From NCBI GenBank assembly GCA_965214095.1, contig OZ243938.1, positions 3,424,001 through 3,488,000 of the forward strand: DNA of 64,000 nucleotides, in the 5' to 3' direction. The notes under the pieces are model-generated. The model saw only the letters and a list, made by a program, of their open reading frames with translations. It made no database searches and was not told where the DNA came from. Below, piece after piece: positions 33,816 through 60,631 of this stretch. The DNA is from Candidatus Poribacteria bacterium (GTDB lineage: Bacteria; Poribacteria; WGA-4E; WGA-3G). Every line of letters starts with the position of its first letter. The first letter of the stretch is position 1. A program made the position numbers and the translations under genes.

Positions 33816-33827
33816 ATAGTAGAAATA

Positions 33828-34755: not shown

Positions 34756-37700
34756 TTGAATTCAAATAAAAAACATATCGCATCCATTTTCGTGACAATG
34801 TTAATAATTTTGGGAACAGTTCTTACAGGTTATGCAGACATTACCCCTGTGAGTGACCGCACACCGCAGATCCGTGATGCAATTGTGGCTGAGGTTCCGG
34901 GTGTGGATTCTGCTGACGATGTGACGGAAGCACACCTCGCTGGTATTGTTCGGTTGTCTATGTCTAGTGAGAATATCACAGCACTGAAAGAAGGCGACTT
35001 TGATGGACTGACTTCAATGACTTGGCTTGAGATGGGTAACAACCAGATTAGTAGTCTACCTGCGGACGTGTTCGCAGGTTTGACATCCCTCACACACTTG
35101 ATTATGCCAAGGAACCAGATTAGTAGTCTACCTGCAGGTATATTTTCAGATTTGACTTCGATTAATCTTATTATTTTACGGGATAATCAAGTGGCGACTC
35201 TTCCTGCAGGTCTATTTAAAGGTCTGTCTTCGCTGACAGAGATATACCTTAAATATAACCAGATTAGTAGTCTACCTACGGACGTATTCTCAGGTTTGTC
35301 TTCGTTGACAAAGTTAGACCTTTCTAGTAACGAGATTAGTAGTCTGCCTGCGGACGTATTCTCAGGCTTGTCCTCACTTACAACGATCGAACTTGAATGG
35401 AATCAACTGAATAATCTATCTGCAGGACTATTTGCAGGTTTGTCCTCACTTACAACGATTAAACTCGGTGGTAACCAACTGACTACTCTTCCTACAGGTC
35501 TATTCTCAGGTTTATCTTCGCTGGATTCGATTTCCCTTTATCGGAATCAATTGAGTAGTCTTCCGATGGGTATATTCTCAGGTTTGTCTTCACTCACTGA
35601 GTTGATCCTGTTCAATAACGCAGCTGAGTTATCTTTAATAATTGAACTGCAGCAGGTTGGCGTGAATCAGTTTAAGGCAGTTATGGCTACCGGTGCGCCA
35701 TTTACTATTGTGGTGCCGATCAATGTTACGAATGGGAGTATTATGGGTGGTGCAACGACTGCTACTATTCCCATCGGTAGTGTAGAAAGCACACCTTTCA
35801 CGGTGATCCCGACCCCTGGCACATCTGATGCTGTGTCCTTGCTATTAGGGACTTTACCGGATCTACCCTCAGATCATAGAGGTTATAGACTCGCGCCCTT
35901 TAATTTTCCCCCAGAATTCGTTGAGGGTCCGAGCACGATACGCACAGTCGCTGAGGATATACATACTGGTGGAGATGTCGGCACCACAGTCAGTGCTACT
36001 GATCCGTATAACGACCCATTGACCTACACACTGAGCGGGACAGATGCTAGTTCATTTACAATTGATGCTACGACTGGGCAGTTAAGAACCAGTATACGAC
36101 TTGACTACGAAACCCAATCCACCTACATGGTAACTGTTAATGTTACGGATGGCACTTTAAATGATTCAATAGCGGTAACTATCAATGTTACCAATGTAGA
36201 ACCGGAGGTTTTGAATGCTGGTGAACCGCGCACCGTGAGGCTTTTCTATTTCTTACCGAATGATCGTCCATATCGCCAAGAAGTTGTTGACGCGATGAAA
36301 ACTGGGATATTGGAGGTTCAGAGTTTCTATGCCGAGCAGATGGCGGCACATGGACACGGGAACACGACATTTAATATTGAAGCCGATGCACAAGGAGAAC
36401 CAATTGTTCATCGTATTAACGGAGACAACAGCGACAGCCGATACGCGAGTAGTGGGTATACTGACGGTGAAATCATCCGAGCATTTGATACTTCCACCAT
36501 GATTTCAGCCATCGTCATGGATGTTAGCCATCATAGTGTAAGAGGACGAGGTACGGGGAATAAAAGTAATGGATGGTTAATAATATATGAAGATTGGGAT
36601 TGGTTTACTGCAGCTCATGAACTGGCACACGCCTTCGGGTTGCATCACGATTATCGTGATAATTCGTATGTTTTGTCATACGGAACAACGGATCGTTCAA
36701 CTGCAACATTATCGGCTGCTGCCGCCGAGTTTTTATCGGTGCATCCTTACTTTAATACCAGTATCCCCCTTGAAATTGGAACAGGACCTACCGTAGAACT
36801 GGTGTCACCGACAACTTATCCTGCTGGATCAGAAAGCGTCAATATCCGAGTAAGGGTTCGCGACGATACTGGACTTCATCAGGCAATGCTTTTTGTTCGC
36901 CCCAACAATCCCTTTCGTGGTACCACTCCGGAACTCAAAATGTGGCAGAAGTTGGATGGTGAAACAGATACTACTGTTGTATTCAATTTCGACGGTAGAG
37001 TTCCATCCGATGGTGATGATCCAGATATGACACTCGCCAATACGGATCAATACGAAATCAGTGTGATGGCGGTGGATACGGAGGGAAACTGGTATAGATC
37101 TAATTTTATTACACTTGAGGCAGGGGAAGCTCAGGAGATTGTTCCGGTCAGCGACCGCACACCGCAGGTGCGCGATGCGATTGTGGCTATAGTACCAGGT
37201 GTCAATTTTGCCAGGGGTGTAACCGCAGCACATCTTGCTAATATAGTTTACTTAGATCTGCGTAATAAGAACATCAAGTCACTGAAACAAGGTGACTTTT
37301 CTGGCTTGTCAGCGTTAGATAATCTCGATTTGTCTAACAATAAGTTGTCATCTCTTCCTGCTGGGGTTTTTGATGGCTTGTCAGCACTAAAGATTTTGAA
37401 CCTGTATTACAATGAGTTGTCGTCCCTTCCTATTGGAGTTTTCCATGGCTTGTCAGCACTCACACGTCTTACGCTGTTTGTCAATGAGCTGACAACACTA
37501 CCTGCTGGGGTTTTTGATGGCTTGTCAGCACTAAGCCATTTGAATTTGTCTAACAATGAGTTGTCATCTCTTCCTGCAGGTATCTTTTCTGGGTTATCGT
37601 CGCTGACAACACTTAACTTGAAGGGTAACGCTGTCTACCCGATGCCCCTTACAGTGTCGCTGGTAAAAGTTGGAGCAGATCAGTTCAAGGTGGATGTGCC

Positions 37701-40700
37701 TACCGGTGCGCCATCTGACATGGACATACCACTTATTGTTGTGAATGGAACTATTAATGGCGGCGTAGAACGTGTCACGATCCCTACAGGCAGTGTGAGA
37801 AGCGATGTCCTTACCGTTACCCGTACGCCCGGTACAACAGCTGCAGTCATTGTAGACCTTGAGAGGACAGTGCCGAGTCCTACCGGGGCCGACTACGTTT
37901 TCTACAAATCATTCCCTCATTTGGAAATCTTCAGTCCTTTGGCAGGAGCACCCACCCCTGTGAGCGAACGCACACCGCAAGTGCTTGATGCTATCGTAGC
38001 TGCAGTACCAGAGATAGATCATATCCACCATGATAGAGACATACGCTACCTGATAGGTGGACAGTTTGTAGACAAGAAATATAACATGGGACACTATGTG
38101 TCTGAGGCATACCTCGCGGCAATTACGAATCTGGATGTGTTCGGTGTGTCTGGCGGTGCTGACTTAAGCCTCAGCGGTAATTGGTTTAGTCTGCATGGCA
38201 ACGCTACAGAACTGAAACTCGGTGATTTTGATGGCATGACGAATTTAGCAAAACTCCGCCTTGATGGCAACGAGTTGAGTTCATTGCCAGGGGATCTCTT
38301 TGACAATCTCACCAACCTGACTACGCTCAACCTTAGCAGCAACGAGTTGAGTTCATTGCCAGAGGATCTCTTTGACAATCTCACCAATCTGACTACGCTC
38401 AACCTAGACAGCAACGAGTTGAGTTCATTACCAGCGGGTCTCTTTGACAATCTCTCCAACCTGACATATCTCAATCTATTGGACAATCCGTTGGGTCCAC
38501 TGTCAGAAGGTTATTTTGACAACCTGACCAAACTAACAACGTTACACCTACCAGCCTCTGTCACGCCACCGACAACGCCGGAAGATAGCAAGGTTACCCC
38601 GGTCGCTGACCGGACACCACAGGTGCGCGACGCTATTGTAGCTGCAGCCGGTGTCAATTCTGCCGCCGATGTGACCGCAGCACATCTCGCTGCAATTACG
38701 GAATTGGATCTGCAGGAAGAGAATATTGCAGCACTAAAACAAGGAGATTTTGACAATCTTCACGGTTTGGATTTACTTGTACTAAACGGCACGTTCAGTT
38801 CATTGCCAAGTGGCATCTTTGACCAATTGGTCAACTTGAGAATACTCGGCATAGCAGGCAGCCAGTTGAATTCTTTGTCAAGCGACATCTTCGACAATCT
38901 TACCAATCTGAAATCACTCGGCATAGTCAACACCCAGTTGCGTTTATTACCTGATGGCATCTTTGACAATCTTACCAACGTGCCATTCATCACCCTAAGC
39001 AATAACCAGTTGAGTTCATTACCTGATGGCATCTTTGACAAAACTACAATGTCACTCGACTTAAGCAACAACCAGTTGAGTTCATTACCTGATGGCATCT
39101 TTGAGGGCATTTTTAGCGAACCACCCGATCTTACAGGGTTTGAGGTGCTTGGTGTTCCGCTGGGTCAAGTACTGGAGGAAACTCTTGCTGGCACAGACTA
39201 CACAACTGTTAACCTGACCGGTAACCTTGTCAACCCGATGCCCCTTACTGTATCATTGGAGAAGGTTGCGGATGGTCAGTTCAAGGCAGTGACACCCGCG
39301 GGAGCACCGTTTAAACTTGTGCTGCCTATCAGAGTTGTAAACGGCAGCATCAACGGGGGTGTAGAGAGTATCACGATCCCCGTAGGCAGCGTGGAAAGCG
39401 ATATCTTCACCGTGACCCGCACATCAGGGACAACCTATGCTACCACAGTAAATATCGGCACATTACCTCAACTACCCAAACAGCATAGTGGTTATACCCT
39501 TGTCAAATCCGATGCCCTTCCGCTGGTGTTCTCAGAACTGGGTGGAAGCATATTAACCCCGGTTAACCAACGATCACCACAGGTGCGCGATGCGATTGTG
39601 GCGGCAGTGCCGGGTGTGAATTCCGCTGACGACGTGACCGCAGCACATCTCGCCGCAATTACAAGCCTGTCTTTTGGACTTAGTAATCCTACGAAGGTAG
39701 GCGATTTTGATGGACTCACCGGTCTGACAAGAATTGGAATGGGTACAGATCTAACCTCCATTCCGGAAGGTTTTTTCAATGAATTCAGCAACTTAACGTT
39801 TTTGGATTGGGAAGATTTACAATTAAGTTCACTGCCAGCCGGAATATTTGACAATCTCACTAATCTTACAAGCATGAGTCTTGGTTTTGGGCAGTTGAGT
39901 TCTTTGCCCGATGGTATCTTTGACAATCTCACTAATCTTACAGCAATGAGTCTTGGTTTTGGGCAATTGAGTTCTTTGCCCGTTGGTATCTTTGACAATC
40001 TTACTAATCTTACAGCAATGAGTCTTGGTTTTGGGCAATTGAGTTCTTTCCCCGATGGTATATTTGACAATCTCACCAACCTGACAAGGCTCAGAATAAC
40101 CAACACACAAATGTTAGCATTGCCTGATGGACTGTTATCTGGGGTATCGTCATTAACAAGCCTCAGTTTTTTTAGTAATGCAGCTGACCCGATGCCTTTT
40201 ACCGTGTCATTAGAGAAGATTGGAGCGGGACAATTCAAGGCAGTGGCACCCACAGGCGCACCTTTTGATATTGTATTGCCTATTCGTCTCACAAATGGAC
40301 GTATTGATGGTGGGGCGAGCAGCATTACTATTCCCGCTGGCAGTGTGGAAAGCACCACTCTTACTGTGACACGCACCCCCGGTGCCACCTATGCTACCAC
40401 AATAAATATCGGTACATTACCAAGTCTACCCCAAAATCATACCGGCTATTCACTTGTTAAATCCGTTGGTCTTCCGCTCGCGTTCCCAGAACTGGGTGGA
40501 CAGGTATTCACCTCAGTCGGCAGTCGTACACCACAGGTAGCAGAGGCGATCCTCGGCGTTGTCCGTCTAAATGATCCGAACGTCTCCAGCTTCGCAGAGA
40601 TCACGAATAGTCACCTTACTGGAATTACTGCCTTATATTTGAACGGTAGAAATATCACATCTCTAAAGTCAGGTGATTTTGAGGGACTCAGCAGTTTGGA

Positions 40701-43700
40701 AGAGCTGCGTCTCCATAGTAATCAACTTACGAGTCTGCCAGAAGACATCTTTAGCGGACTCACTGCACTAACAACACTCACCCTATATGGTAATCAGTTA
40801 ACCACGCTACCGCCAGGGATATTTAATGGATTATCGTCACTCTCAACGCTCCGTTTCGGTCTCAATCAGTTGACGACGTTACCAGCGGGTCTATTTGACG
40901 GACTTAATTCGTTGACAGATTTGCGTATGATTGGTAATCAGTTGTCCGAATTACCGGAAGGTATATTTGTAGGATTGACAGGACTGACAACGCTCAGTTT
41001 AGGCAGTAATGCGGTTGATCCTTTACTTCTTACTGTCTCATTGGAAAAGGTTGGCAATGGGCAGTTCAAGGCAGTTGCACCGACGGGCGCGCCTTTTGAT
41101 ATGGTGCTGCCGATAACCGTTACCGATGGCAGCATTAGCGGTGGTGCAACAACTCTTACAATACCCGCAGGCAGCGTGGAAAGCGAAGTGCTTACCGTTA
41201 CCCGCACACCCGGTGCGACCTATGCTACCACAGTCAATATCGGCACATTACGAAGTCAACCTGGAAATCATACCGGTTATTCCCTTGTCAAATCCGTTGA
41301 CCTGCCGCTTGCATTCCCAGAACTGGGTGGTAGGGTATTTGTTCTTGTGAGTGACCGCACGCCACAGGTGCGCGATGTTATCGTCGCAGCAGTACCAGGG
41401 GTGAATTCTCCCAACGATGTAACCGAGGCGCATCTAGCTGCCATTACACGCCTTAACTTTTGGTTTGGTGTATCTCAACTGAAAATAGGTGATTTTGATG
41501 GTCTCTCATCGCTGACGAGTATCTCTATCGATGTATCTGAAGGTTCGGTTATTTCTGAGGATGCGATTACTAATCTACCCACTTTGAATAATATCTTTAT
41601 TGATAGATCTCCAGGTTTGATTATCTCTGAGGGTGCCATTACTAATCTACCCGCTTTGAATAATATCTCTATTAATAGATCTCCAGGTTTGACTATCTCT
41701 GAGGGTGCGTTTACTAATCTACCTGCTTTCACATTAATCTGGATTGAGAGAAGTAGCGACTTGGCTATCTCTAAAGGAACATTTTCTAATCTACCGGCTC
41801 TCACAACTATCAGGATTGAAACATGCAGAGACTTAACTATCCCCGAAGGAGTATTTTCTAATCTGCCCGCACTAACAGACATAAGGTTATCCCAAAACAA
41901 TTTGACTACATTGCCTGAAAATATCTTTGACAATCTCACTACACTGGAATATCTCGACCTATCAAGCAACAATTTGACAGCACTGCCCGATGGGCTTTTT
42001 GAAGGGCTTACATCGCTGACAACGCTCCGTTTAAATGGTAACGCAGTTAATCCAATGCCCCTTAGTGTGACACTGGAAACAGTGGCAGAAGGTCAATTCA
42101 AAGCAGTCGCACCAACGGGGGCACCTTTTGATATTGTGCTGCCGATCAGTGTTTCCAATGGAAGCATAAGCGGCGGAGCAACGAGTCTCACGATCCCCAC
42201 AGGCAGTGTGGAAAGCGATGTGCTTACCGTCACCCGCACACCCAGTGTGACATTTGCCGTGAGTGCGGATATTGGAACGCTGCCGGGGGTACCTACCAAT
42301 CATACCGGTTATACCCTTGTCAAATCGGCAAATCTGCCTATAGAGGTTATCAGTGAGGTAATCCCCATTGTTCTCGTTGACAAGGGTGTTTGTAAGGTAG
42401 GTGATATTCTCACTCCCGGTGAAAGCTGCACTTACCCAGACACTGATGCGGTTTTCTCTGTGATCGCTGATGGTAAGTCTCAATGGAACATCCCAGGATT
42501 ACCGGATTGGCTTGCATCGTTTGTAAATAGAATATCTATTAATGATTCAATGAGTATTATTTCAACTGTCAACGGAAAGACCTATCGATTCGAGGCAAGA
42601 GCCGTTGAGAACAATTCTTGGCAGATAGAACAGATCGGAGACAGAACGCAAGAATCAATAGCCTCAGGTATCAATATTCCTGATGCTAATCTCCGCACCA
42701 AAATAGAAGATGCCCTCAATAAATCATCGAGTGACACAATTACCATTACAGAAATGGAAACGCTAACATCGCTCAACGGCCAGGATTCCTCTATTAGTGA
42801 TCTAACAGGTCTTGAGACGGCTACCAACCTAACAACGTTGAAACTTGGCAACAATGCAATAGTTGACATCTCGGCACTTGCGAACTTGACAAAACTCACC
42901 GAGTTACAACTCTGGGACAACCAGATTACGACACTGTCCGACTTATCCGGATTAACCAACCTAACAACGTTATACCTGTGGGGAAACACTGTCTCAGATA
43001 TCTCTGACTTATCTGGATTGACAAGTCTGATGCAGCTGCGACTCGGTGAAAACAGTATCACAAATATAGGTACAGTTTCAAACTTAACAAACCTGACGCA
43101 GTTATATCTGAATGAAAACACTATAACCGATATTTCAGCGGTAGCGGGATTAACAAACCTCACAGAACTACGCATCGGCGACAACACTATATCAGATATA
43201 ACACCTGTTCAGAATCTAACAAACCTTGAATGGTTAGATATACCGAATAACAGCATTTCGGATATATCCGCAGTCCAAAATCTAACGTCACTGGTAGAGT
43301 TATACTTTCAAAATAACAGTGTCTCCGATCTATCGCCTTTGGTAGCAAATACTGGTTTTGGAGAGTTCACCGAACTTGATGCCCAAGGTAATCCGTTGAG
43401 TTATCCATCTATCTACACGTATATACCTGCTCTGCAAGCGAAGGATGTGTATATTGACTTTGACAACCGAGTGGCGACCGTACCTGTGAAAATATCGGGA
43501 GATACACAACAAGATAAAACCGGCGCACTACTTACACTGCCATTTATCGTTGAAGTGAAAGATGCAGATAGTGTCATTTTTGCGGGAGTGCCTGTCACTT
43601 TTGCTATTACAGCAGGTGGTGGTACACTTAGTTCAACAAGCACCACAACCGATGTGAACGGCAGGGCACAAAGCACATTGACACTTGGCGATGCCGCTGG

Positions 43701-46700
43701 CACAAATACCGTTAGCGTCAGTGTGGCGGCTGTCACGCAGACGATTACATTTACTGCGACAGCAACCGCACCGGTAGTTGTTTACATTACCCCTGTTGGT
43801 GACCGAACATCACAAGTAGCACAGGCAATCCTCGGTGTCGTCCGTTTAGACTATCCGACCGTCTCCAACTACGCGGAGATTACTGCTACACACATTGCTT
43901 CACCGACAACATTATATCTGAATAACAGGAACATTACGACTCTGAAATCAGGTGATTTTGATGGACTTACCGGTTTGGAAGACCTCCGTCTCAATAATAA
44001 CCAGCTAACTTCTCTACCATCAAACATTTTTTCCGGACTAACCGCACTCTCAAATCTCAATCTGTTTAACAACCAGTTAAGTAGTTTGCCAAATGGCATA
44101 TTTGAAGGATTGACATCGCTGACAAAAATCCGGTTGGCAGGCAATGCAGTTGATCCACTTCCTGTTACCGTATCATTGGAAAAGGTCGCAGAAGGTCAGT
44201 TCAAAGCGGTTGCCCCCACGGGTGCCCCGTTCACTATTGTGTTGCCGATTAACGTTGCTAACGGAAGTATCACGGGGAGTGCAACAACGCTCACAATTCC
44301 GCAAGGTAGTTTGGAAAGCGATACCCTCAACGTAACACGCACCGCTGGCACAACCGCGGATGTCACCATTGATATTGGGACCTTACCGAGTCTACCGCGC
44401 AACCACTTCGGTTACGCACTGGTGAAACCTGATGACCTACCGTTAGCAGTTATCACAAGTATCAACACTGCTCCCGTATTTACGGATGGCACCGCAATCA
44501 CGCGCACTGTAACAGAAAACACTGTTGCTACCACCAACATCGGCACACCGATTGCTGCCACAGACACCGAAAACGATACCTTGACCTACACACTCAGTGG
44601 CACGGATGCAAGTGCGTTTGATATTGATAACAGCACCGGACAACTAAAAACGAAGACAACTCTTGACTATGAAACAAAGAACACTTATACCGTTACAATT
44701 ACAGTTTCGGATGGCAGTCTCACGGATACAATCACGGTTACCATTAACATTACCGATATAGACGAAGCCGTAGTAGTTGATCCACCAACGACAAACGTCG
44801 CACCAACATTTACAGATGGTGAAAGCACGACCCGTGTTGTCTCCGAAAATACAGCTGCTGGCACTAACATCGGAAATCCCGTGAACGCAACGGACGCAAA
44901 TAACGATACGTTGACATATTCGCTCGGTGGTATAGATGCCACCTCGTTTGATATTGATAGCACAACAGGTCAACTCAAAACAGAAGCATCGCTTGACTAT
45001 GAAAACAAACGCGTCTATTCAGTCACTATCACCGCCACCGATGATGAACTATCGGATACGATCACAGTGATTATCAGTGTAATTGATGTGAACGATACTG
45101 TCCTGAGTATAGGATTTGTGCCTGTTGCGGATCGCACGTCACAGGTGCGAGATGCAATCGTTGCTGCCGTGCCGAACGTGGCAGATGCTGCTTCTGTTAC
45201 CGAATCACAGGTCGCTGCTATTACAAGTCTCAATCTACGCAGCAAAGGTATTTCATCTCTCAAAACAGGTGATTTCTCTGGGATGACTGCACTGACAACC
45301 CTCAATTTGTTTAGAAACCAACTCTCCGAACTACCACCAGGGATATTTGATGGATTAACAGCATTGTCAACCCTGCGATTAGGGGACAACGTTGTTGACC
45401 CACTACCGCTTTTCGTATCCCTCCAAAGTGTCGGCACAGGTCAGTTCAAGGCAGTGATTACGACAGGGGCACCGTTTAGTATGGTGTTGCCGATCACTGT
45501 CACGGACGGAAGTATTAGTAGCGGCATAACGAGCGTTACGATTCCACAAGGGAGGGCAGAAAGCACCTCATTTACAGTGATAGGCACTGCCGCTAAAGTG
45601 TCTTTCGGGACATTTCCCAGTATACCACAAGGTCATTTCGGCTATACGCTTACACAATTCACAGTTTGTAACCGCACTACCGAAGTGGCAGATGCGATTG
45701 CGGCGGCGGTTGGCGTGAGCGACTGCAGCGATGTTACAGAGGTTGACCTCGCTACCATTACACGACTTGACCTGTCAGGTTCCGCAATTACATCCTTGCA
45801 AACTGGTGATTTTGATGGCATGGTCTCCCTCAGAACGCTTTACCTGGAGAACAACGATCTCACCAGTCTACCCAACGGCATTTTTGACGACTTGGTATCA
45901 CTGACTTTCTTATCACTCAATGAAAACAAGTTGACGACTTTGTCAAGTGGTATCTTTAGCAAATTAACCTCACTGACACACCTGGATATATTTGACAACG
46001 ATATGAGTTCGTTACCGAGCAGTGTTTTTACCGGGTTGTCCGCGCTTACTTCATTATCTCTGAAAAACAACGAACTGACATACCTACCGGGAGATATATT
46101 CAGTGGATTGTCATCGCTAACTTCGCTTTCGTTATCAAACAACAAACTAACATCATTAACAGCTGGGATTTTTGAAGGTCTGACGCAGCTAAGTCAGCTC
46201 CATCTGAGTTTGAACCCAAACGCAAATACACTGTTGACGTTAAGAATATCGCTTCAGAAGGTAGGAACAAACAGTGTTAAAGCTGTTGTCCCCAGTGGGG
46301 CACCATTTACGATGACAATCCCAGTCCAGATTGAGAATGGCGTTTTAGCAGGTGGGGCAACGACTATGACGATTCCGATAGGCGCGGTTGAAAGCCAACC
46401 ATTGACAATAACGCGCACGGCAGGAGCCGTCGCTGCTGTTACAGCGGATGTCGGTACTGCATTGCCGCGGCTACCTTCAAATCACAACGGATATAATATT
46501 CTCAAATCTCGTACCTTGCCGTTAGAAGTGCTGCCGCCATTAAACTCACCACCGGTATTCACAGAAGGTGCAAGCACAACCCGCACAATCTTAGAGAATA
46601 CAGCAACAGGCATAAATATCGGTGATGCAATTACCGCAACCGATGTCAATACAGCTGACACCTTGACATATACGTTGCGTGGGACGGATGCAGCAGCGTT

Positions 46701-48852: not shown

Positions 48853-48954
48853 CATTTTGAACCCACCCTAAACCGTGCTTACAAGCTCACTATAGGGTGG
48901 ATGCATGATTATCACATACGATTGCACTTTGCAGTCAAAAAATACAAGGAATAT

Positions 48955-51900
48955 ATGATGAATATGTTAAAAGAAAAACGAAATATAATTGTGTTACTTA
49001 TCGTAGTCATGTTCTTAATAAATGGTGTACAAGGTATGAGTTATGGACAGGATGATGCTCTGACTGTTACCCCCGGTGAAACCAACACATCCATTAGTGT
49101 CAGATTTACAGATTTTCTCTTCGTTTATGATGAAAACGCATACCAAGTTCAGTTGCGTCGAAAAACACCGCAAGGAGAGTGGATAACAAAATGCGTGATT
49201 ATTTCGCTCAGCTATGGTCTCCATAATCTCGAATCCAGACCTCCCGGAAATTACGTAGGCAGTGTCATCTTCACAGACCTTGAGCCTGGTACTACATACC
49301 AAGCACGTTACCGAGATACAAACTTGTCAGAATGTCATGACAATCCCCCCGCTCCAAATCCGTGGTCTGCAATCGTAGAAGCGACAACACACTTAGTTAC
49401 ACCCCCACGTGTTGAATTTGTTGATGCTAATTTAGCGACATTAGTACGCAGGGCACTGGATCTTGATACTGGAGATGGAGTTGACCTCCTCAAAATCCCC
49501 AAAGAGAAACTGACAAAATTAAGAGGTGTATATGATAGGGTAGGAAAGATAAGGGACCTGACTGGTTTGGAACATGCGACTGAGCTTACGAAGTTAGATC
49601 TCTTTCTCCATCAAGTCATTGACATTACGCCACTTGCAGGACTCACGGAACTCACGGAGATAGATCTCGGAGGCAATGAAATCATTGATATTACGCCACT
49701 TGCAGGACTCACGGAACTCACGGAGTTATATCTTGGAGGTAATGAAATCAGAGATATAACTCCGCTTACCCAACTCACACAACTCACGGAGTTAGATCTC
49801 TCAGACAATTATATCATTGACATTAGTCCGCTTGCAGGGTTGACGCAGCTAACGATATTATATCTCAGTTATAATCAAATACAGGACATCACACCGCTTT
49901 CAACACTAACACAACTGACATCGTTACGTCTTCTTACTAATCAAATCAGTGACCTTACTCCTCTCGCACAACTCACACGATTGGTTAGGTTACACCTAAA
50001 GAAAAATGAAATCACCGATGTCACACCGCTCACACAACTCACTAACTTAGAATATATAAATTTAGAAGACAACAATATCACTGATATCACACCCTTGGCA
50101 CAACTCTCGGATCAGACACAGATAGATACTGATTCTTTTGGGAAAGGATTGCTGCCAAGTCAAATTGAACTTTTGACAGTCTCGTCCTCAGAACCGTTGT
50201 TAGAAGCAACACTGAACGGAAGTCCGGTGACACTCACACTGCTACCGAGTGGTGCGGCTTATGATACATCAATTGAAAATATCAGAAACGCCTTGACATT
50301 AACCGGTATTGAGGGCATGACTGTATCTGATGTGATACGCGTAAGTGATACAGAACTAAAAGTGTCGTTTGAATTTACGGGTAATTTGGAAAACACTACC
50401 CTGTTGACCATTTCACTTGGCGCGGAGGCAGTTACTGGTTACGAAGGTCGCACACTCACGGGTGAAATTCCTGTTTACCCTGACATAGAATTAACTGTAT
50501 CATCCAGCGATCCGTTGACAGCTGCCACCCTGCATGGAAGTGTTGTAACGCTAAGTAAGGGGCGGTTTAGTTCCAATTATTATGTTAAGCGTGGTACCTG
50601 GCTATCTGGCGTTACCGGCGTCACTATTGATAGCCAGACAGATATAGAAAGGGTCAGTGCTACCGAGGTGAAAATTACACTTACTTATGATGGCAGCGGC
50701 AGCATTGACGAGGATACGATCCTGACCTTCACCCTTAGACCGTATGCAATATCAAATTACAGTGGTCCCTCACTTACCGCTGAGATACCTGTTTCCCCAT
50801 CAACCGAAATAGAAGTAAATAGAGATTTAGTAGCATCAACAGCATTTCCGTTGACGAAGGAAACCTTGAATCGAAGTTTAGTGCTACTGACGCTGCAAAA
50901 TGATTCCTATTCCTTTTTACAAGGCTCTGTACTTACTGTGACGCTATCGGGAATTGATGGGGTCTCTAACAGAGGATTTGGTCTTGATGTAAATCACATA
51001 AATAGCAAGGAAATCGTTGTTAGGATTAACTTTCGAGGAGACTTTGATACCGATGCTACTCTAATCTTATCAGTTCCCTCAAAGGGAATAGAAAACTACA
51101 AAGGCCCACCGCTCTCAGGGGCGTTACCTGTCACTGTGAAATCGGGAAGGCAGGTGCTTGTACCAGAATCCCAGCGACCTTCAATGTTTTGGATCAACAC
51201 GGATACTGACAAGATTGAGTCACTTGACCGTTTTGATGCGATTACGAATCATGTCGCAAGTCTAACTGTAGATGCAGCAGGTGGCAAGATTTACTGGGCT
51301 GAGCACGGTAGCAGTCGCGGGATAATCAAAAGTGCCAATCTTGACGGGACAAACGTTGAGGTGTTGACAACCGAACCAATCACTGCTAACAGCCTTACCG
51401 TTGACACTGCGGATAGCAAACTCTATTGGATAGATTCAACGCAAGATAAAATCCTAAGTGTTAATCTCAATGGCGAAAATATCCGCACCATCATCGAAAC
51501 TGGTAATAATATTTTGAATTTCGCTGTAGATGCAGCAGGCGGCAAACTCTATTGGACGGATAAATTTAGCATTTGGCGTGTGAACCTTGATGGGACAAAT
51601 AACGAAAAAATATTGACTAATTCAGGATTATACCCATTAATAGGGGGCATTGTTGTAACAGATGGTAAAATCTATTGGTCAGAACGACGGTCATCTGTAA
51701 GTGGCAACATCCGTCGTGCTAACCTCAACGGTACAGACATTGAAACGCTCGCTACACCACTGGGTAACCCTACCGACATTGCCGTTGACACTGTAGATGG
51801 CAAGATATATTGGCTAAACTCGTTTGGTGGAATCCAGCGGATGGACATCAACGGTGGAGAGATTGAGAATGTTGTTTACGGTATAGATGCAACGGGAGGT

Positions 51901-52977
51901 TTTGCGGTAGGTCTAGTCTCAACGCAACCGACAACACCAACCACGCCTGAAACACCAACCACCGATGCCATCGTGAGCATTGCACCTATCTCTATAGCAT
52001 CCCCTGCTGTCGGGGAGCAGTTAGCAGTGAGTCTAAACATTACAGGGGGCGAAGCGGTTGCAGGCTATCAGGCAACTGTCCAGTTTGATGACACTGCCCT
52101 TCGGTTTGTCTCAGGTGCGAATGGTGATTTTCTACCCACGGGTGCATTCTTTGTGCAACCTATAGTGGAAGGAAATCTTGTAAAACTGACTGCTGCATCT
52201 CTTGCCGGAGAAAGCGATGGGGACGGAACACTCGCGACACTCACCTTTCAGGTCATCGCTGTGAAGGCATCCACTCTGACGTTATCTGATGTGCTGCTTA
52301 CCGATACTGAAGGTATCGCTTATGTTCCCAGTGTTGAAAACGCAGAGATAACTGAACCAAGCGGGCTCAAAGGGGATGTGAATGGAGATGGCATCGTGAA
52401 CATCCAAGACCTTGTGCTAGTCGCATCCAATCTCGGTAAGACAGGGCAAAACGCGGCAGATGTCAATGGTGATGGTGTTGTCAATATTCAAGACCTTGTC
52501 CTTGTTGCAGGTGCGTTGGGCACGAGTGCTGCAGCACCCTCTCTGCATCTCCAATCTCATGATACGCTCACGGCATCTGAAGTCAAAAAATGGCTATCCG
52601 AAGCACAGCAGTTAAACCTCACGGATGCAACGTCATTACAGGGCATTCTGTTCTTACAACAGCTTCTTGAGGCGTTGACACCGAAAGAGACTGCACTTTT
52701 GCACAACTACCCGAATCCGTTTAACCCAGAGACGTGGATTCCATATCACTTGTCAAAGGATACAGATGTCACACTGCATATCTATGCTGTGAATGGGACA
52801 TTGGTGCGGACGTTGTCGCTTGGACAGCAAGCGGCGGGTATCTATCAAAGTCGTTCACGTGCTGCGTATTGGGATGGTAAGAATGAGTTCGGTGAAAAAG
52901 TCGCAAGTGGCTTGTATTTCTATACGCTCACCGCTGGCGATTACTCTGCTACGCGTAAGATGCTGATACGGAAGTAG
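48955..52977 (+). CDS. Secreted FN3 - internalin LRR - repeat domains - YWTD propeller - cohesin - dockerin - FlgD-Ig CTD protein
   Basis: Signal peptide after an AAGGA RBS; LEPGTTYQARYR (FN3); 22-aa 'N.I.DITPLAGLT.L' repeats; KIYW/KLYWTD repeats; 'VAGYQATVQFD...GDGTLATLTF' (cohesin); twin DVNGDG.VNIQDLVLVA (dockerin); NYPNPFNPETWIPY...RKMLIRK. Confidence 0.9.
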   Translation: MMNMLKEKRNIIVLLIVVMFLINGVQGMSYGQDDALTVTPGETNTSISVRFTDFLFVYDENAYQVQLRRKTPQGEWITKCVIISLSYGLHNLESRPPGNYVGSVIFTDLEPGTTYQARYRDTNLSECHDNPPAPNPWSAIVEATTHLVTPPRVEFVDANLATLVRRALDLDTGDGVDLLKIPKEKLTKLRGVYDRVGKIRDLTGLEHATELTKLDLFLHQVIDITPLAGLTELTEIDLGGNEIIDITPLAGLTELTELYLGGNEIRDITPLTQLTQLTELDLSDNYIIDISPLAGLTQLTILYLSYNQIQDITPLSTLTQLTSLRLLTNQISDLTPLAQLTRLVRLHLKKNEITDVTPLTQLTNLEYINLEDNNITDITPLAQLSDQTQIDTDSFGKGLLPSQIELLTVSSSEPLLEATLNGSPVTLTLLPSGAAYDTSIENIRNALTLTGIEGMTVSDVIRVSDTELKVSFEFTGNLENTTLLTISLGAEAVTGYEGRTLTGEIPVYPDIELTVSSSDPLTAATLHGSVVTLSKGRFSSNYYVKRGTWLSGVTGVTIDSQTDIERVSATEVKITLTYDGSGSIDEDTILTFTLRPYAISNYSGPSLTAEIPVSPSTEIEVNRDLVASTAFPLTKETLNRSLVLLTLQNDSYSFLQGSVLTVTLSGIDGVSNRGFGLDVNHINSKEIVVRINFRGDFDTDATLILSVPSKGIENYKGPPLSGALPVTVKSGRQVLVPESQRPSMFWINTDTDKIESLDRFDAITNHVASLTVDAAGGKIYWAEHGSSRGIIKSANLDGTNVEVLTTEPITANSLTVDTADSKLYWIDSTQDKILSVNLNGENIRTIIETGNNILNFAVDAAGGKLYWTDKFSIWRVNLDGTNNEKILTNSGLYPLIGGIVVTDGKIYWSERRSSVSGNIRRANLNGTDIETLATPLGNPTDIAVDTVDGKIYWLNSFGGIQRMDINGGEIENVVYGIDATGGFAVGLVSTQPTTPTTPETPTTDAIVSIAPISIASPAVGEQLAVSLNITGGEAVAGYQATVQFDDTALRFVSGANGDFLPTGAFFVQPIVEGNLVKLTAASLAGESDGDGTLATLTFQVIAVKASTLTLSDVLLTDTEGIAYVPSVENAEITEPSGLKGDVNGDGIVNIQDLVLVASNLGKTGQNAADVNGDGVVNIQDLVLVAGALGTSAAAPSLHLQSHDTLTASEVKKWLSEAQQLNLTDATSLQGILFLQQLLEALTPKETALLHNYPNPFNPETWIPYHLSKDTDVTLHIYAVNGTLVRTLSLGQQAAGIYQSRSRAAYWDGKNEFGEKVASGLYFYTLTAGDYSATRKMLIRK

Positions 52978-52987
52978 AATTGAAAAT

Positions 52988-53738: not shown

Positions 53739-53862
53739 GTTAAGTTGGGTTCGCTAAGATTCTACACAACCTAATGTTGATACGGAAATAGCAGTTTGCA
53801 ATTGGGTGTTTTGCGAAACTAAACCTGACCTACAAACACAAAGAAATTATGGAGTTATGACA

Positions 53863-56800
53863 ATGAAGAATATGTTAGTCAATAAAAAAATTATATCGTT
53901 GATACTACTCACAATTTTCTTAATTTGTATTATTCAAAGTCCAAGCCACGGTGGTTTCCTTGATAATATACTAGGTATCTTTACTGCAATCATAGATCTT
54001 ATTATTGATATTGCTGAGGGTGTCGTCAAAATTGCTGAGGGTGTCGCTAATCTCTCTATTCGGATTGTTGGCACCGTGTTTTGGGACACGGGGAGTCTCA
54101 CAAATATCACTCCTGCCTATCACGATGGTGGGATATTTGGTGTAATTGTTTCAAACAATATTCATCTATGGGACGCATTAACACATCAAACTCTGAACAC
54201 GTTCACATACACATCTAACCTCACAGATATCGTCTTCAGTTTAGATGGATTGCTGATTGCCAGCGGAAGCGATGATAATACAGTTCAATTGTGGGACCCA
54301 AATACATTACAACTGAAAACGAAACTCATCGGACATACGGACAGTGTGCTCAGTGTGTCCTTCAGTCCGGATGGATCCATGCTCGCCTCGGCAGGTGCAG
54401 ATGGGTTTGTGAAATTGTGGAATCCAGAGACTTTTCAAAACTTAGGTAGTTTCGGTGGACACACCGACACCGTGCGAAGCATCAAATTCAGTCCGAATGG
54501 TTCTATTCTCGCCTCCGCTGACAACGACCATAGTATCCGGTTTTGGAATCCACAAACGCAAACACTCCAAACGACATTGGTCGGACATACTGCGGCTATT
54601 TTGAGTCTTGCTTTCAGTGCAGATGGGGCAATGCTTGCCAGTGCAAGTGAAGATGGCACCGTCCGTGTATGGGACACGCAAAATAATCAAGAACTTGCAC
54701 GAGTCTTCTGTTTACAGTGTAGACTTTAGTCCGGGAGGGAAAGTGATCGTAACAGGCACAGAGGACGGTGTAGCACGGTTGTGGGATCCAGAGAATAAAA
54801 CAGTGTTAGCTACCCTTGGGCATGAGTCACCTGTGAAAAACGTCGCATTTGCCAAATCAGGTTCCATGCTCATTACGGGTAGTGCTGATAACAAAATGCG
54901 TCTATGGGATATCTCGGAGGAAACAGAAGAAAGCGAAGACTTAATCAGCAACCGCACGCTGCAGATGCGTACGACTATACTTTCCTTACTCCGTTCAGAA
55001 GATCCAACCATTTCCGGTCATTCTGACATCACTGCCGCACACCTTGCTAACATTACTACCTTAAATCTAAACAACAAAAACATCACATCCCTGAAAGTCG
55101 ACGATTTTGATGGACTCACCAATTTGCAGACACTACGTCTTAATTTTAATCGACTGACATCGTTGCCAGTAGGTATTTTTGACGACAATACATCGCTCAG
55201 TAATCTCAATCTTTATAGAAACCAATTGAGTAGTTTACCAGATGGCATCTTTGAAGGCAAAACATCGTTAACGACGCTCCGCCTTGGTCGCAATGCAGTT
55301 GACCCACTTCCAATCTTTGTTTCATTAGAAAAGGTCGCAGAAGGTCAGTTCAAAGCTGTGGCACCGACTGGTGCAACGTTTAATTATGTTTTGCCTATCA
55401 CCGTTACCAACGGTAGCGTCAACGGTGGGATAACGACACTCATGATCCCGCATGGTAGTGTGGAAAGTATTATCCTCAGGGTAACGCGCACAGCAGGTAC
55501 TATTGCTAATGTTACCGTCAATATTGGGACACTACCGAACCTGCCGCGCAACCATTACGGCTATGCACTGGTGAAATCTGATGCACAACCTTTAGCGGTT
55601 ATCAGTGCAACCAATACACAGCAGGTAGGTGTCAACATCCCCGATGCCAATCTACGTGCGAAAATTGAATCTGCACTCCGCAAAACATCTGGTGCAACAA
55701 TTTCCGCTATGGAGATGACGACATTAACTACACTTAATGCACAAGACGCAAGTATTACCAACTTGACTGGACTTGAAACAGCGACAAACATTACAACACT
55801 CAAACTTGGAAATAACACAATATCGAATATATCCGCACTATCTGGATTGACAAGTTTGACAGAGTTGCAGCTATGGGACAACCAAATCACGAATTTATCA
55901 TCACTTAGGGGATTAAATAGCCTGACGAAGTTATACCTGTGGGGGAACAACATTTCAGATATATCGCACATATCAGGATTAACAAATCTCACGCATCTAC
56001 GTCTCGGTGAAAACAGTATCTCAAATATAGGTGCAGTGTCAAGATTGACGAACCTGACGGAGCTGTATCTGAATGAGAATACTATAACAGATATTTCCGC
56101 GGTATCTGGATTAACAAACCTCACAGCACTTCGTATCGGAAACAATACAATATCGGATATAACACCTGTTCAGAACCTAACGAACCTTGAATGGTTGGAC
56201 ATGCCGAACAACAGCATTTTGGATATATCCGCAGTCCAAAATCTAACGTCACTGGTAGAGTTATATTTTGCAAATAATGCTGTCTCCGATCTATCACCTT
56301 TAGTGGCAAATACCGGATTTGGAGAGTTCTCCGAAATTGATGCCCAGGGTAATCCGTTGAGTTATCCTTCAATCTATACGCACATTCCTGCACTACAGGC
56401 GAAAGATGTGTATATTGACTTTGACAGCCGAGTAGCAACTGCACTGGTGAAAATATCGGGGGATACACAGCAAGGGAACACCGGTACCGCACTTACACAG
56501 CCGTTTATCGTGGCGGTACGAGATGGAAGCAGTGTCGTTTTTGCGGGAGTGCCGGTAACCTTTGCAGTTACAGCAGGCGGTGGCACACTTAGTGCAACAA
56601 ACACCACAACCGATCTCAACGGTAGGGCACAAACCACGTTGACACTCGGTAATACCGTTGGCACAAACACCGTGCGCGTCAGTGTTACGGGTATCACGCA
56701 GACGATTATATTTACTGCTACAGCGATAACAGCACCAATCGTTACAGTATCTCCTATAGCCAACCGTACTCCACAAGTACGAGATGCAATCGTCGTTGCA

Positions 56801-59800
56801 CTCCCCGGTATTAACAGTGCCAACGATGTAACCGAAGCACATCTCCGAACAATTACACACTTAAATCTGAAAAACAAAAACATTTCAACTTTAAAGGAAG
56901 GTGATTTTGACGGGTTGTCGGCACTTACCGAACTCCAACTACAACAGAACCGATTAACAACACTTCCTGCTAATATCTTTTCCGGATTGTCGGCTCTGAG
57001 GACGCTCTATCTGAGTAGCAATCAACTTGCAAGCTTACCGATGTCTGTGTTTTCAGGTTTATCGTCGTTGTCTAACCTATACCTGAATAATAACAAGCTT
57101 ACCAATTTACCCGAAACAGTTTTCTCCGGACTGACCTCACTGAGACAGATAAACATGCACACAAACCAGCTGACAACACTCCACGTCAATGTGTTCTCGG
57201 GGTTATCGTCACTGAACCAAATAAGTGTCAACGACAACAGATTGACAAGTTTACCAGAAAATGTGTTCTCTGGACGGACAGGTCTGGTATACCTCTATTT
57301 GGATGGTAACCGACTAACGAACCTACCAGCAAACTTGTTTTCTGGCTTGTCGGCATTACAGCAGCTCAAGTTTAATAACAATCGACTGAGTGCTTTACCT
57401 GCAGGTTTATTTAGTGGGTTGTCATCATTATCATGGCTCCTGATCCATAATAACACAGTAAACCCGTTCCCCTTTACCGTCTCATTAGAAAAGGTTGGTA
57501 CAAATCAGTTCAAAGCGACCGCGCCTGTGGGTGCCCCATTCACTTTGACAATACCGGTCAGTATCGTTAACGGTAGCATCAGCGGCGGTGCTTCTACCCT
57601 AACAATACCAGCAGGTAACGTCGAATCACAAGTGCTCACCATTACACGCACACTCGGCACAACGGGTGCTGTTACCGTGGATATCGACACATTGCCGGGG
57701 TTACCGACGCAACATCAAGGTTACGTACTTGTCAAGTCATCGACTTTGCCGTTAACAATCATCAATGCGCTCAATAATAACGCACCAATATTCACGGAAG
57801 GCACAAGCACGACGCGTGCAATTGCAGAAAACACGTCATCAGGTGTCAACATCGGCAGTGCTGTATCCGCAACGGATATTGAAAACGACACATTAACTTA
57901 TAGTCTCAGTGGCACAGATGCATCAGCATTCAATATAGATACAACGAACGGGCAGCTGCAAACGTTGGCAGCACTCGACTACGAAACAAAATCGTCCTAC
58001 ACGGTGACAGTCACAGTCTCCGATGGCAACCTCACAGATACAATCACTGTCACTGTAAATATTACCGACATTGATGAATTACCGACAGATTCAAACGTTT
58101 GTATGGTTGGAGACATCCTCGCCCCCGGTGAGAGTTGCACGTATCCAGACTCAGATGCTGTTTTCTCTGTGCTTGCCAATGGACATTCACAATGGAATAT
58201 TCCAAATTTACCGTCGTGGCTTCAGTGGATTAACCAAGTCGCAATTGGCGGATCAATGCGAATCACTGCAACAGTTAATAATACGACTTACCACTTCGTG
58301 GCAGAGTCTGTCAGCAATAAGTCTTGGGAAATAAAGGAGATCGGAGATGATACAAGCCAGCAGCCTGTTACACCTGATTCTACTGAAAACCCAGAAACAG
58401 CACCAACACTAACTACATCAACTGCAGCACCACTCACAGAGTCAGCACTGCATGGGGGTATCATCACACTTAACCTCAGCGGTGGCACTTTTGAGCACTC
58501 CAAGTTCACAATCAGAGATGCGATAACGTTGACCGGAATTTCTGGTGTTACCGTTGACACATTCGGTGTTGATCGGGTGAGTGATACGCAGGTCACTGTT
58601 GAACTGGAATTTGATGGGAATATGACAAGTGACAGCAACCTGACCATCTCTTTGGGGGCAGATGCAATTAAGGATTATGATAGTTCGGCACTGACTGCGC
58701 AAATATCAGTCTCTGCAGTCAATGAATCGGTCACCGCTTCGCCATCCACATTGACCGAGGCGACACTTGATGGCACAGAAGTTACCCTCACGCTCAGTGG
58801 ACGGAAATTTGAACGATCTATTCTTGACATCAGAGATGCTGTGTCAGTCTCAGGCATATCGGGTGTAACATTCCCGTGGCACGACCCGGATAAGGAGAGT
58901 GATACCGAACTCACTGTGAAACTGGAATTTGATGGAGATATGACAAGTAATGGCACACTTACGTTTACCGTAAGTGCGGATGCTATCGCAGGATATAATG
59001 GTCCTGTCCTTACCGCGCAAATCTCTGTCTCTGCCACAGGTACAACAACCCCATCAAACCGTGCGCCAATATTTACTGAAGGTAGCAGTGCCACACGCTC
59101 GGTAGCAGAAAACACGGCATCAGGTGTAAATATAGGCAATCCTGTATCTGCTACAGATGCGGATGGAAATACGCTCACTTATAGTCTTGGTGGCACAAAT
59201 GCATCAGCCTTTAGCATTGTCAGCAGTTCAGGGCAGCTGCAAACGAAAGCATCGCTTGACTACGAAACGAAGACATCCTACTCGGTCACCGTCTCTGTCT
59301 CTGATGGAAATGGCGGGCGTGATAGCATCACCGTGACAATCAACATAACTGACATAAACGAAAATATTCCAAACCGCGCGCCAGTATTTACTGAAGGTAG
59401 CAGCACCACGCGCTCGGTAGCAGAAAACACGGCATCAGGTGTAAATATAGGCAATCCTGTATCTGCTACAGATGCGGATGGAAATACGCTCACCTATAGT
59501 CTTGGTGGCACAAATGCATCAGCCTTTAGCATTGTCAGCAGTTCAGGGCAGCTGCAAACGAAAGCATCGCTTGACTACGAAACGAAGACATCCTACTCCG
59601 TCACCGTCTCTGTCTCTGATGGAAATGGTGGAAGTGATAGCATTTCCACCACTATTAATATTACTGATGTGACTGAGACAGAAACAACTACAAATGGCAC
59701 ACCATCCATCAGTGTCTCTGCTGATACCACATTGACAGAAGCAACACTTGATGGCACAGAGGTTACCCTCACGCTCACAGGTGGCACTTACGAAAGCTTA

Positions 59801-60631
59801 TTCTGGAATTATCAAAAGGTATCTGCCTCTGGGATCACAGGTGTGACTTTTGATGATTTTTTTGATGTTGACCGCGAAAGTAGCACAGAACTCACCGTTG
59901 AACTGACATTTGATGGGAATATGACCACCGATGGCACACTCACCTTTACCGTTGATTCGGATGCTATCGTGGATTATGATGGTTCGGCACTGACTGCGCA
60001 AATATCAGTCTCTGCAGTCAGTGAATCGGTCACCGCTTCACCATCCACATTGACCGAGGTAACACTTGATGGCACAGAGGTTACCCTCACACTCAGTGGA
60101 CGGAAATTTGAGCGATCAATTTTTGACATTAGAGATGCTGTGTCAGTCTCAGGTATATCGGGTGTAACATTCCCGTGGCACGACCCGGATAAGGAGAGTG
60201 ATACCGAACTCACTGTGAAACTGGACTTTGATGGAGATATCACAACTAATGGCACGCTTACCTTTACCGTCGGTGCGGATGCTATCGCAGGCTATAATGG
60301 TTCCGCACTTACTGCACAAGTGTCTGTCACTGCAAACCAAGAGAACGTTCTCGGGGCAAACTTCCCAAATCCATTTAACCCAGAAACATGGATACCGTAT
60401 AAGCTGGCGAAATCCACAGATGTAACTATCACTATCTATGCTGTGAACGGCATATTGGTCAGGACGTTGATCCTCGGACATCAAGCTGCAGGTATGTATC
60501 AAAGTCGTTCCCGTGCCGCGTATTGGGATGGTAAAAACGAGTTCGGTGAAAAAGTAGCGAGTGGCTTGTATTTCTATACACTCATAGCAAGCGATTTTAA
60601 TGCTACGCGCAAGATGTTGATACGGAAGTAA
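53863..60631 (+). pseudogene. Secreted WD40 - LRR - Big_1 - cadherin - repeat domain - FlgD-Ig CTD protein (~2250 aa), frameshifted at ~54699
   Basis: Signal peptide and WD40 blades (GHTDSV.SV.FSPDG..LAS....VKLW) up to NQELA. The sequence continues in another frame as HESSVYSVDFSPGG through LRR and cadherin modules to RKMLIRK. Confidence 0.8.
59056..59670 (+). repeat. Near-identical tandem cadherin-encoding repeats (~312 bp x2)
   Basis: NRAP.FTEGSS.TRSVAENTASGVNIGNPVSATDADGNTLTYSLGGTNASAFSIVSSSGQLQTKASLDYETK twice, almost identical in DNA. Confidence 0.9.

Follow-up and report, generated by a model that had tools for sequence, protein, structure and literature searches.

Unit turnover, paralog exchange and selection on the concave face in giant leucine-rich-repeat genes of a Poribacteria bacterium

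Must a bacterial locus whose repeats look like those of the variable lymphocyte receptors (VLRs) of jawless fish also diversify as they do? The question is raised by positions 34756–60631 of a 64,000-nucleotide (nt) stretch of contig OZ243938.1 from a Candidatus Poribacteria bacterium (assembly GCA_965214095.1; the whole stretch is called the window and the genome G000), where giant genes encode proteins rich in 24-residue leucine-rich repeats (LRRs). Jawless-fish VLRs are built from the same class of LRR and are assembled from cassettes, and an earlier note on this DNA, made from the sequence alone, proposed that the locus likewise reshuffles binding specificities through a constant DNA framework. 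We suggest that these genes are probably an ordinary repeat-protein family of a Poribacteria-type sponge symbiont, coding for giant multivalent surface or secreted binding proteins with no dedicated diversifier, and that a VLR-like look (same repeat class, conserved framework, variable face) can arise from ordinary repeat evolution.

The gene on which most of the evidence rests, gene A (34756..48852, plus strand, 4698 residues), was delineated from its open reading frame (ORF), translation, Pfam matches, unit list and module alignment. It comprises a hydrophobic leader, eleven cap-LRR modules, a block of 22-residue LRRs with a Big_1 domain, a metallopeptidase-like region, cadherin domains and a sorting domain; Pfam LRR_8 matches 39 stretches and Cadherin six. 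Each module, or supermodule, begins with a helical cap (motif in gene A roughly PVSDRTPQVRDAIVAAVPGV..DVT.AHLA.IT.L.L) followed by two to ten 24-residue units of consensus LxxLxLxxNxLxxLPxGxFxx, and in 9 of the 11 modules these are followed by a conserved beta-sandwich domain some 100 residues long (NAVDP.PLTVSLEKV..GQFKAV.PTGAPF...GY.LVKS). Searches of Pfam and NCBIfam matched neither the cap nor the sandwich domain. The 56 full 24-residue units that could be listed in register in the window conform to LxxLxLxxNxLxxLPxxxFxxL, and units of 22 residues are confined to separate blocks, at residues 2689–2866 of gene A and in genes B and C downstream.

Module A6 was modelled with AlphaFold from the aligned eleven window modules. 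The model is predicted with high confidence (predicted local distance difference test, pLDDT, 95; predicted template modelling score, pTM, 0.88) and contains a pair of helices, six LRR strands and a beta domain of nine strands. Its top structural matches are extracellular proteins with 24-residue LRRs, namely lamprey VLRA (Z 21.3, root-mean-square deviation (rmsd) 2.9 over 172 residues; VLR chains in general reach Z 18–21), LRRTM2 (Z 21.2) and Slit2 (Z 18.5); hagfish and lamprey VLRs are 40–44% identical to the module over about 130 residues at rmsd 1.0–1.5, so that the assignment of the repeats to the VLR class, made in the earlier note, holds. The internalins InlB and InlF reach Z 18.1 where cap and LRRs are aligned, and the elements of the model follow the internalin-like order of cap, LRR and beta domain. 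The Foldseek alignment with InlB LRR-IR runs over about 310 columns, but its full-length rmsd is 11–13, which makes the likeness of the sandwich domain tentative.

How constant is the DNA framework of these repeats? A 41-nt framework occurs with at most 3 mismatches at nine places (38275, 38347, 38419, 39895, 39967, 40039, 47938, 48010 and 48082), all of them in modules A3, A5 and A12 of gene A, whereas 100 dinucleotide shuffles gave none. Allowing at most 6 mismatches gives 15 places, adding 38866, 38938, 39823, 41902, 48226 and 48298, and across the whole genome at most 3 mismatches gives ten, the same nine plus one in a paralog, A', that is described below. A shared framework is thus present in the A3, A5 and A12 areas where it had been reported, but the fourth reported site, at ~39010–39110, has no match at up to 6 mismatches, the nearest being 38866 and 38938, and near-constancy is not borne out: units of different modules agree over their whole length at no more than 53 of 72 nt, and the proportion of synonymous differences (pS) at non-concave codons of the FDNLT-type modules is 0.59, against ~0.8 for unrelated unit pairs. 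Four modules, A3 (LRR array 38236..38523, FDNLTNLT sub-type), A4 (38755..39108, FDN sub-type), A5 (39784..40215) and A12 (47815..48474, FDN sub-type), all on the plus strand, have synonymous codons in common (Ser15 AGT, Ser16 TCA or TCT, Leu14 TTG and Asp23 GAC), the last despite a preference for GAT of 344:161 across the three genes of the locus. This likeness between modules reflects shared descent rather than near-constancy. Truly similar pairs (62–68 of 72 nt) are neighbours within one array, such as the A3 units at 38308 and 38380 (65 of 72). The differences between neighbours that had been quoted at the xLxx positions are real, but neighbours do not differ mainly there: the five most similar pairs have 3–6 changed codons each, only 1–3 of them on the concave face or at position 13, and position 19, on the convex side (LPxG), differs in four of the five.

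The variable face is nevertheless a property of the family, with amino-acid entropy per unit position peaking at 6, 8, 10 and 11, and it carries a distinct pattern of selection. Concave positions were taken as 5, 6, 8, 10 and 11 of the unit, and ratios of non-synonymous to synonymous substitution (dN/dS) were pooled by the Nei-Gojobori method (NG86). Between gene A and its closest ortholog, a single gene of 6540 residues in the related genome G041 (G041:C5:1059037-1078749, stitched from loci L089–L094), dN/dS is 1.10 at concave positions (bootstrap interval 0.76–1.63), 0.39 at convex and loop positions, 0.16 in the core and 0.27 outside the LRRs, and amino-acid changes affect 79 of 195 concave codons vs 70 of 389 convex ones (Fisher p = 1e-8). 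A hidden Markov model of the unit found 200 full units in 21 ORFs genome-wide, a subset that misses irregular units, and close pairs among them were reduced to independent edges of a minimum spanning tree. Over the 48 edges, concave positions show 68 non-synonymous to 14 synonymous changes and the remaining positions 78 to 123 (p = 7e-12). Recent duplicates within a gene (22 independent pairs identical at 58 of 72 nt or more) have a concave dN/dS of 2.33 (1.35–3.72) and 0.34 elsewhere, and the within-gene concave interval excludes 1 at three identity thresholds (1.35–3.72, 1.36–2.52 and 1.16–1.88), whereas the same units compared between different genes give a concave dN/dS of 0.23 (0.12–0.40). 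From the contrast between 2.33 and 0.23 it follows that new units diverge fast on the binding face and are then conserved. The excess variability of concave positions that the earlier note had suspected is therefore borne out, by entropy and by dN/dS (1.10 between orthologs and 2.33 among recent duplicates, against 0.16–0.39 at other sites). Pooling dN/dS over all unit pairs of the window was tried and discarded, since synonymous sites are saturated between modules and the within-module concave value, 0.86, mixes old and young pairs.

Whether the face and the framework of a unit have separate histories can be read from their silent sites. Had strand segments been imported or hypermutated, their conserved codons ought to show more synonymous difference than framework codons. 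Over 106 adjacent unit pairs, however, synonymous divergence at conserved codons of the strand segment is 0.44, against 0.47 for the framework, and over the 45 pairs with near-identical frameworks it is 0.16 against 0.13. This equality indicates that whole units share one age, and hence that the contrast between framework and face was made by selection at the amino-acid level and not by the copying of cassettes.

Comparison across related genomes reveals repeat number and content that differ, always by exact 24-residue units. A global MAFFT alignment of the gene A protein with its G041 ortholog is clean over the first 2186 residues and contains there three exact 24-residue indels, in A1, A3 and A4; A3 has one 72-nt unit more than in G041, and A4 one fewer. 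The number of units in A5 is the same in the two genomes, but their content is not. The A5 array contains a tandem repeat at 39847–40076 with 94% matches, and its middle units (39856, 39928 and 40000) are identical to each other at 65–68 of 72 nt and to unit 2 of G041 at 62–65. Units 3 and 4 of G000 match their own unit 2 at 67 and 65 of 72 nt and their positional orthologs at only 56 and 54, and the middle three units of G041 differ mainly in codons 5–13. As the later units of A5 are nearer to unit 2 than to their positional orthologs, one unit must have been copied over those next to it in the lineage of G000.

Paralog A' (G000:C1:3010068-3016789, minus strand, 3855 residues) lies 450 kb from gene A in a second, inverted cluster (G000:C1:2995001-3055000) with frames of 4310, 888, 2439, 3855 (A'), 302, 533, 1068 and 1772 residues, the last of which, C', is at G000:C1:2998145-3003463. 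Parts of this cluster are 89–93% identical to the window locus, which identifies it as a segmental duplication at a distance of about 450 kb. The 5' halves of A and A' differ in module content, and only the 3' 6.8 kb (42011..48852, plus strand in A; 90.6–93.2% identity) are collinear. The collinear part has just two gaps, both due to sequence present in A and absent from A': an exact 72-nt LRR unit in module A12 (47938..48009, plus strand, residues 4395–4418), whose flanks are otherwise 96–99% identical, and a 48-nt, or 16-residue, tandem duplication (47515..47562, plus strand; TDTDTDENGESVTDTV; tandem repeat 47514–47608, 2 copies, 100%). Overall, A and A' have a synonymous divergence (dS) of 0.19 and a dN/dS of 0.24. 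Their synonymous differences are clumped, with pS in 60-codon bins from 0.00 to 0.58, an index of dispersion of 4.4 against 0.89 expected (reached by none of 5000 permutations) and identical tracts of up to 233 nt. At 43125–43500, gene A is 85–89% identical to gene C and 83–87% to A', while the flanking windows are 99–100% identical to A'. Such mosaic divergence of paralogs 450 kb apart is the signature of gene conversion.

The mosaic extends to the G041 ortholog. Over a length of 4.5 kb, the tree topology favoured by the three-taxon sites of A, A' and the G041 gene changes (chi-square 352, 44 degrees of freedom, p = 1e-49), with counts per 200 nt that run, for example, from 53:1:0 to 11:18:0 and then to 5:4:15. 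Gene A and the G041 gene have a pS of 0.23 overall and of 0.00–0.05 in many 60-codon bins, whereas for five non-repeat genes that immediately precede the locus in the window, pS is 0.53–0.72 (dS 0.9–2.5) between the same two genomes. The two copies of gene A have no flanking sequence in common and lie in different genomic neighbourhoods, the G041 counterparts of the upstream genes being about 290 kb away from the G041 copy on the same contig. On these comparisons, gene A, or much of it, was exchanged between the G000 and G041 lineages long after these split.

The orthologs also differ in how the modules are divided into genes. The G041 gene matches window positions 35009–47144 and then 58418–60638, equivalent to gene A with the tail of gene C attached, and has extra modules and a duplicated 22-residue LRR block. 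G020, a genus-level relative, has a syntenic cluster in which gene A is represented by two genes, of 1920 and 4209 residues. Orthologs of gene A were traced with its metallopeptidase-like region (36196..37150, plus strand) as a gene-specific probe; this region, with an HExxH motif (HELAHAFGLHHD), is a weak match to Pfam Reprolysin_5 (E 2.8e-5, 24.9 bits, under the 27-bit cut-off) and gave none in NCBIfam. The G020 copy of the region is 77% identical, and matches were found in 38 of the 41 genomes searched.

A scheme that would account for these observations is as follows. Each protein would be a string of independent binding modules, in which a helical cap leads into 2–10 24-residue LRRs of eukaryotic type and then a beta-sandwich; interspersed among the modules would be 22-residue LRRs, cadherin and other domains, and at the end a sorting domain of type A of the type IX secretion system (T9SS). 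Within an array, slippage or unequal recombination would add, remove or overwrite whole 72-nt units, after which positive selection on the solvent-exposed concave positions would drive fresh duplicates apart. Longer tracts would be exchanged by gene conversion between paralogs, genes or their parts may move between co-occurring species, and gene fusion, splitting and decay would further reshape the family. The 'constant DNA framework' would then be a trace of the recent common descent of whole units together with amino-acid constraint. The architecture, the indels of whole units, the homogenisation within A5, the mosaic divergence and the pattern of selection are demonstrated by the data above. 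Surface display of these proteins is putative, as is their binding of host or other ligands, and the genes are likely to be determinants of host or partner specificity.

Several points weigh against this interpretation. The only T9SS component searched for, PorU (model NF033707), gave three ORFs of 1752–2161 residues (G000:C1:2636952-2642495, 2779835-2784961 and 3093005-3097372) at 252–284 bits, below the 420-bit cut-off, with about 45 further ORFs matching just the tail part of the model, and structural genes of Por secretion are reported as not found (PMC3909097), so that export by the T9SS is tentative. Gene C is broken, and part of the family may be decaying. Between A and A' alone the concave excess is weak and non-significant (7 of 110 vs 14 of 418, p = 0.17), and the ortholog concave dN/dS of 1.1 is equally expected under neutral drift. 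The within-gene ratio above 1 comes from 22 short pairs picked by overall identity and pooled by NG86, and very short conversion patches could mimic such a signal, 41 of the 68 concave changes altering at least two nucleotides of the codon. Finally, rare variants would be hidden in contig data.

Could the arrays instead be rebuilt at high frequency within the population, by a programmed copying of cassettes through the framework like that of VLR assembly or antigenic variation? In favour of this one may cite the VLR class of the LRRs, the roughly 170 related modules of the genome as possible donors, the conversion between paralogs and the unit-level overwriting that did occur, the multi-nucleotide nature of those 41 concave codon changes, and the 14 of 38 unit pairs that are identical at 41 or more of 45 framework nt and yet at no more than 18 of 27 strand-segment nt. 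Against it, the equal synonymous divergence of strand and framework indicates that segments were not replaced apart from their frameworks, and concave residues are conserved between paralogs (0.23). Pairs with like strand segments and unlike frameworks (4–9 of 32) were considered as evidence of shuffling and rejected, being consensus-like first units of different genes at matching places. Neither the window nor the paralogous locus revealed a silent bank of LRR cassettes: the arrays examined sit in long open frames, complete genes have a hydrophobic leader at the start and a sorting domain at the end, the paralogs examined carry leaders and tails of their own, and the intergenic DNA of the locus contains repeats resembling repetitive extragenic palindromes (REP-like) and an insertion sequence (IS) remnant, not LRR cassettes. 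The absence of a reverse transcriptase, noted earlier for the window, extends to the genome, which is 94.5% complete and has no match to PF00078 (the same search gave matches in 3 of 14 named genomes as a control; template repeats were not searched), and the only transposase-like piece in the window is the broken IS remnant. Four public runs were compared over 33000–52999, three of them samples of one study containing 91–96% of the sampled words, and the contigs of these three have 0 differences over 34840–37386, 37505–39033, 39075–39960, 40020–41147, 41271–42840, 48561–49653 and 49696–52815 (to 52794 in run X7); within-population variants were thus not seen over A3, A4 and A6, in contigs, which drop rare variants. 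Contig joints had been entertained as recombinant forms and were rejected: each is represented by a single contig in a run, its shorter side measuring 20–47 nt, none of the seven tested joined forms is in the genome, and in six of the seven at least one flank is also 87–98% identical to A' or another paralog, so that the joints are best read as paralog cross-mapping. Half-depth 'alleles' at 43.1–46.6 kb were likewise dismissed, being explained by the 90.6%-identical A' passing a 90% threshold, and run X2 (sponge metagenome), with contigs of 92–94% on 35266–37372 and 43275–47543 and almost no cover of 37.7–43.0 kb, was left unused, as an absence of cover proves nothing; runs X1 and X3, with small shares, were left out of the comparison. 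On this balance we regard programmed diversification as very improbable. Recombination and gene conversion have reshuffled the repeats over evolutionary time, through indels, the overwriting in A5 and mosaics, but a dedicated combinatorial system with the framework as its recombination substrate, as the earlier note had it, is not supported. The same contigs bear on the suspicion that the repeat structure arose, wholly or partly, from collapsed or chimeric assembly of paralogs. They break at repeat boundaries (39033–39075, 39960–40020 and 41147–41271), and reads of A' pile up on 42.3–48.3 kb, where depth roughly doubles. However, the seven zero-difference stretches cover, in three runs, most of the first 8 kb of gene A as well as gene B, the indels against relatives are all exact multiples of 72 or 48 nt that keep the frame, and the same module grammar recurs in the orthologs of two other genomes. 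An artefact is extremely improbable, and misassembly can be set aside for most of the locus, although the unit count of A5, within whose near-identical units the contigs break (39960–40020), is provisional.

Neutral repeat turnover, with unconstrained concave positions, indels and conversion of no adaptive value and a family in partial erosion, would agree with the ortholog concave interval that spans 1, with the lack of a significant concave excess between A and A', with the 11-nt deletion that breaks gene C and with the short module-bearing frames elsewhere in the genome (163, 315 and 553 residues). It is at odds with the within-gene concave intervals that exclude 1 at all three thresholds, with the conservation of concave residues between paralogs (0.12–0.40), with the intact open frames of 4698, 3855 and 6570 residues and with purifying selection on the rest of the protein (0.16–0.39), and we consider it unlikely. 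It is also conceivable, though quite improbable in our estimation, that the ~170 modules and those of co-resident species form a shared donor pool, in which frequent conversion and overwriting would create strain- or cell-lineage-specific binding surfaces within one host. Contigs would miss variation of this kind, since rare variants are lost in them and the most repetitive arrays interrupt them; if true, it would amount to a bacterial surface-variation system built on VLR-class repeats.

Among known systems, the locus is a well-resolved example of the eukaryote-like repeat proteins already described from sponge symbionts. Poribacteria abound in LRR, WD40, cadherin and immunoglobulin-like (Ig-like) proteins that carry Por sorting domains (PMC3909097), and LRR enrichment and lateral transfer of repeat-protein genes have been described among sponge symbionts (PMC8163846); the organism group (61 of 77 related loci are titled Poribacteria), the domain repertoire and the sorting tail are the same here. 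The parts of these papers that were consulted contain Pfam domain counts per genome, without the supermodule, arrays of up to eleven, unit indels, mosaics or concave selection, and a full-text search of the literature, supplements not covered, found nothing on the cap-LRR-sandwich supermodule or its unit-level evolution. The locus is distinguished by an undescribed supermodule architecture and unusually clear evolutionary dynamics.

The internalins (InlA, InlB and InlF) appear to have a plan in common with the modules described here, of helical cap, LRR solenoid and beta-sandwich on the end, and a presumed role in binding host surfaces may be common to both. However, internalin LRRs have 22 residues, whereas those of the modules are of the 24-residue, eukaryotic extracellular type with a DNA period of 72; internalins have one module per protein, not many; and they are anchored by LPXTG or GW rather than by a T9SS-type tail (TIGR04183). 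The VLRs of lampreys and hagfish have the same LRR class and curvature, with variability on the concave strands, but their caps are cysteine-rich (LRRNT and LRRCT), whereas the modules have a two-helix N-cap without conserved cysteines and a beta-sandwich on the C side. VLRs are made from an incomplete germline gene and flanking cassette banks; the arrays here belong to long open frames with a sorting domain at the end, and their diversity arises on evolutionary time. In plant resistance-gene LRR families, birth-and-death, unequal crossing-over and diversifying selection act on solvent-exposed LRR residues, and clustered paralogs, copy-number change, exchange between paralogs and dN/dS > 1 confined to xLxx are found there as here; the genes of the present locus are instead bacterial, encode putatively extracellular multi-module giants rather than single-array receptors, and have been exchanged across species, as far as their sequences tell. 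Mosaic tracts between family members are likewise found in antigenic variation by gene conversion, which uses promoter-less silent donors and one expressed gene, whereas the paralogs examined here are complete with leaders and tails. Of diversity-generating retroelements, the reverse transcriptase was not found in the 94.5%-complete genome (PF00078, 0 matches). As in type A cargo of the T9SS, genes A, B and C all have a C-terminal type A sorting domain (TIGR04183 at 39.4, 35.7 and 29.8 bits, respectively; cut-off 23), that of gene A at 48511..48849 (plus strand), after module A12, which has no beta-sandwich.

The evolution and ligands of eukaryote-like repeat proteins in sponge symbionts are poorly known, and the locus offers a concrete, testable picture of them. 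The working unit is the cap-LRR-beta-sandwich module, and chains of modules make up proteins that can reach ~6500 residues. Duplication of units followed by selection on five concave positions would create new binding faces, and whole tracts appear to pass from paralog to paralog and also among species whose synonymous sites are otherwise saturated. Single modules are tractable objects for work on binding and structure.

With one module as query, G000 gave 170 matches, spread over about seven regions and at least 23 open frames, the longest of 4310 residues. In a public protein collection, 2063 proteins matched at E ≤ 0.001 among 8000 candidates scored, nearly all of them unnamed, and a scan of one genome per species gave 77 loci that by title belong to Poribacteria (61), Latescibacterota (8), Gemmatimonadota (1), Gammaproteobacteria (4) and 'uncultured bacterium' (3). 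The module was seen at 38–67% identity in genomes titled Latescibacterota, Gemmatimonadota or Gammaproteobacteria (L015, L016, L019, L026, L029, L034, L041, L067, L069, L071–L073 and L081). These titles suggest that the module has spread across phyla. One public run with a partial match to the locus carries the label sponge metagenome.

Downstream of gene A, gene B (48901..52977, plus strand, 1358 residues; Pfam and NCBIfam) encodes 22-residue LRRs, a YWTD/LDL-receptor class B propeller, a cohesin, a dockerin and the T9SS sorting domain. Gene C (53806..60631, plus strand; ORFs and Pfam), with WD40, LRR and cadherin domains, is in two frames, 53806–54729 (WD40) and 54608–60631, separated by an apparent 11-nt net deletion (9 + 2 nt) at ~54692–54697 relative to its intact counterparts, the open frames of 1772 residues in C' and of 2321 residues in the G020 ortholog. 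The description of the three giant genes as paralogs applies only loosely: gene B shares with the others mainly the sorting domain, 22-residue LRRs and some domain repeats, and what remains of C is the 3' part of a broken gene.

A second contig of the genome, C2 (32066 nt), has a G+C content of 64% vs 41% in the main contig and may be foreign or mis-binned. On the left, the LRR locus is bordered by a remnant of an IS4/IS5-family transposase in three frames (33107..33796, minus strand), directly after a truncated AAA_15-like ORF (32584–33144); Pfam PF13340 (DUF4096) matches its piece at 33545–33796 with E 8e-27, and the two downstream pieces have no Pfam match. Between this remnant and gene A lies a high-copy REP-like element of ~140 nt (34024..34196, also 33860–33900, no strand assigned), recognised by genome self-matches and contig depth. 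Most of the 267 high-identity genome matches of 33001–61000 (at least 85% over at least 60 nt) begin at 34024–34041, and contig depth over the element is 40 to 300 times that of adjacent bins in all four runs.

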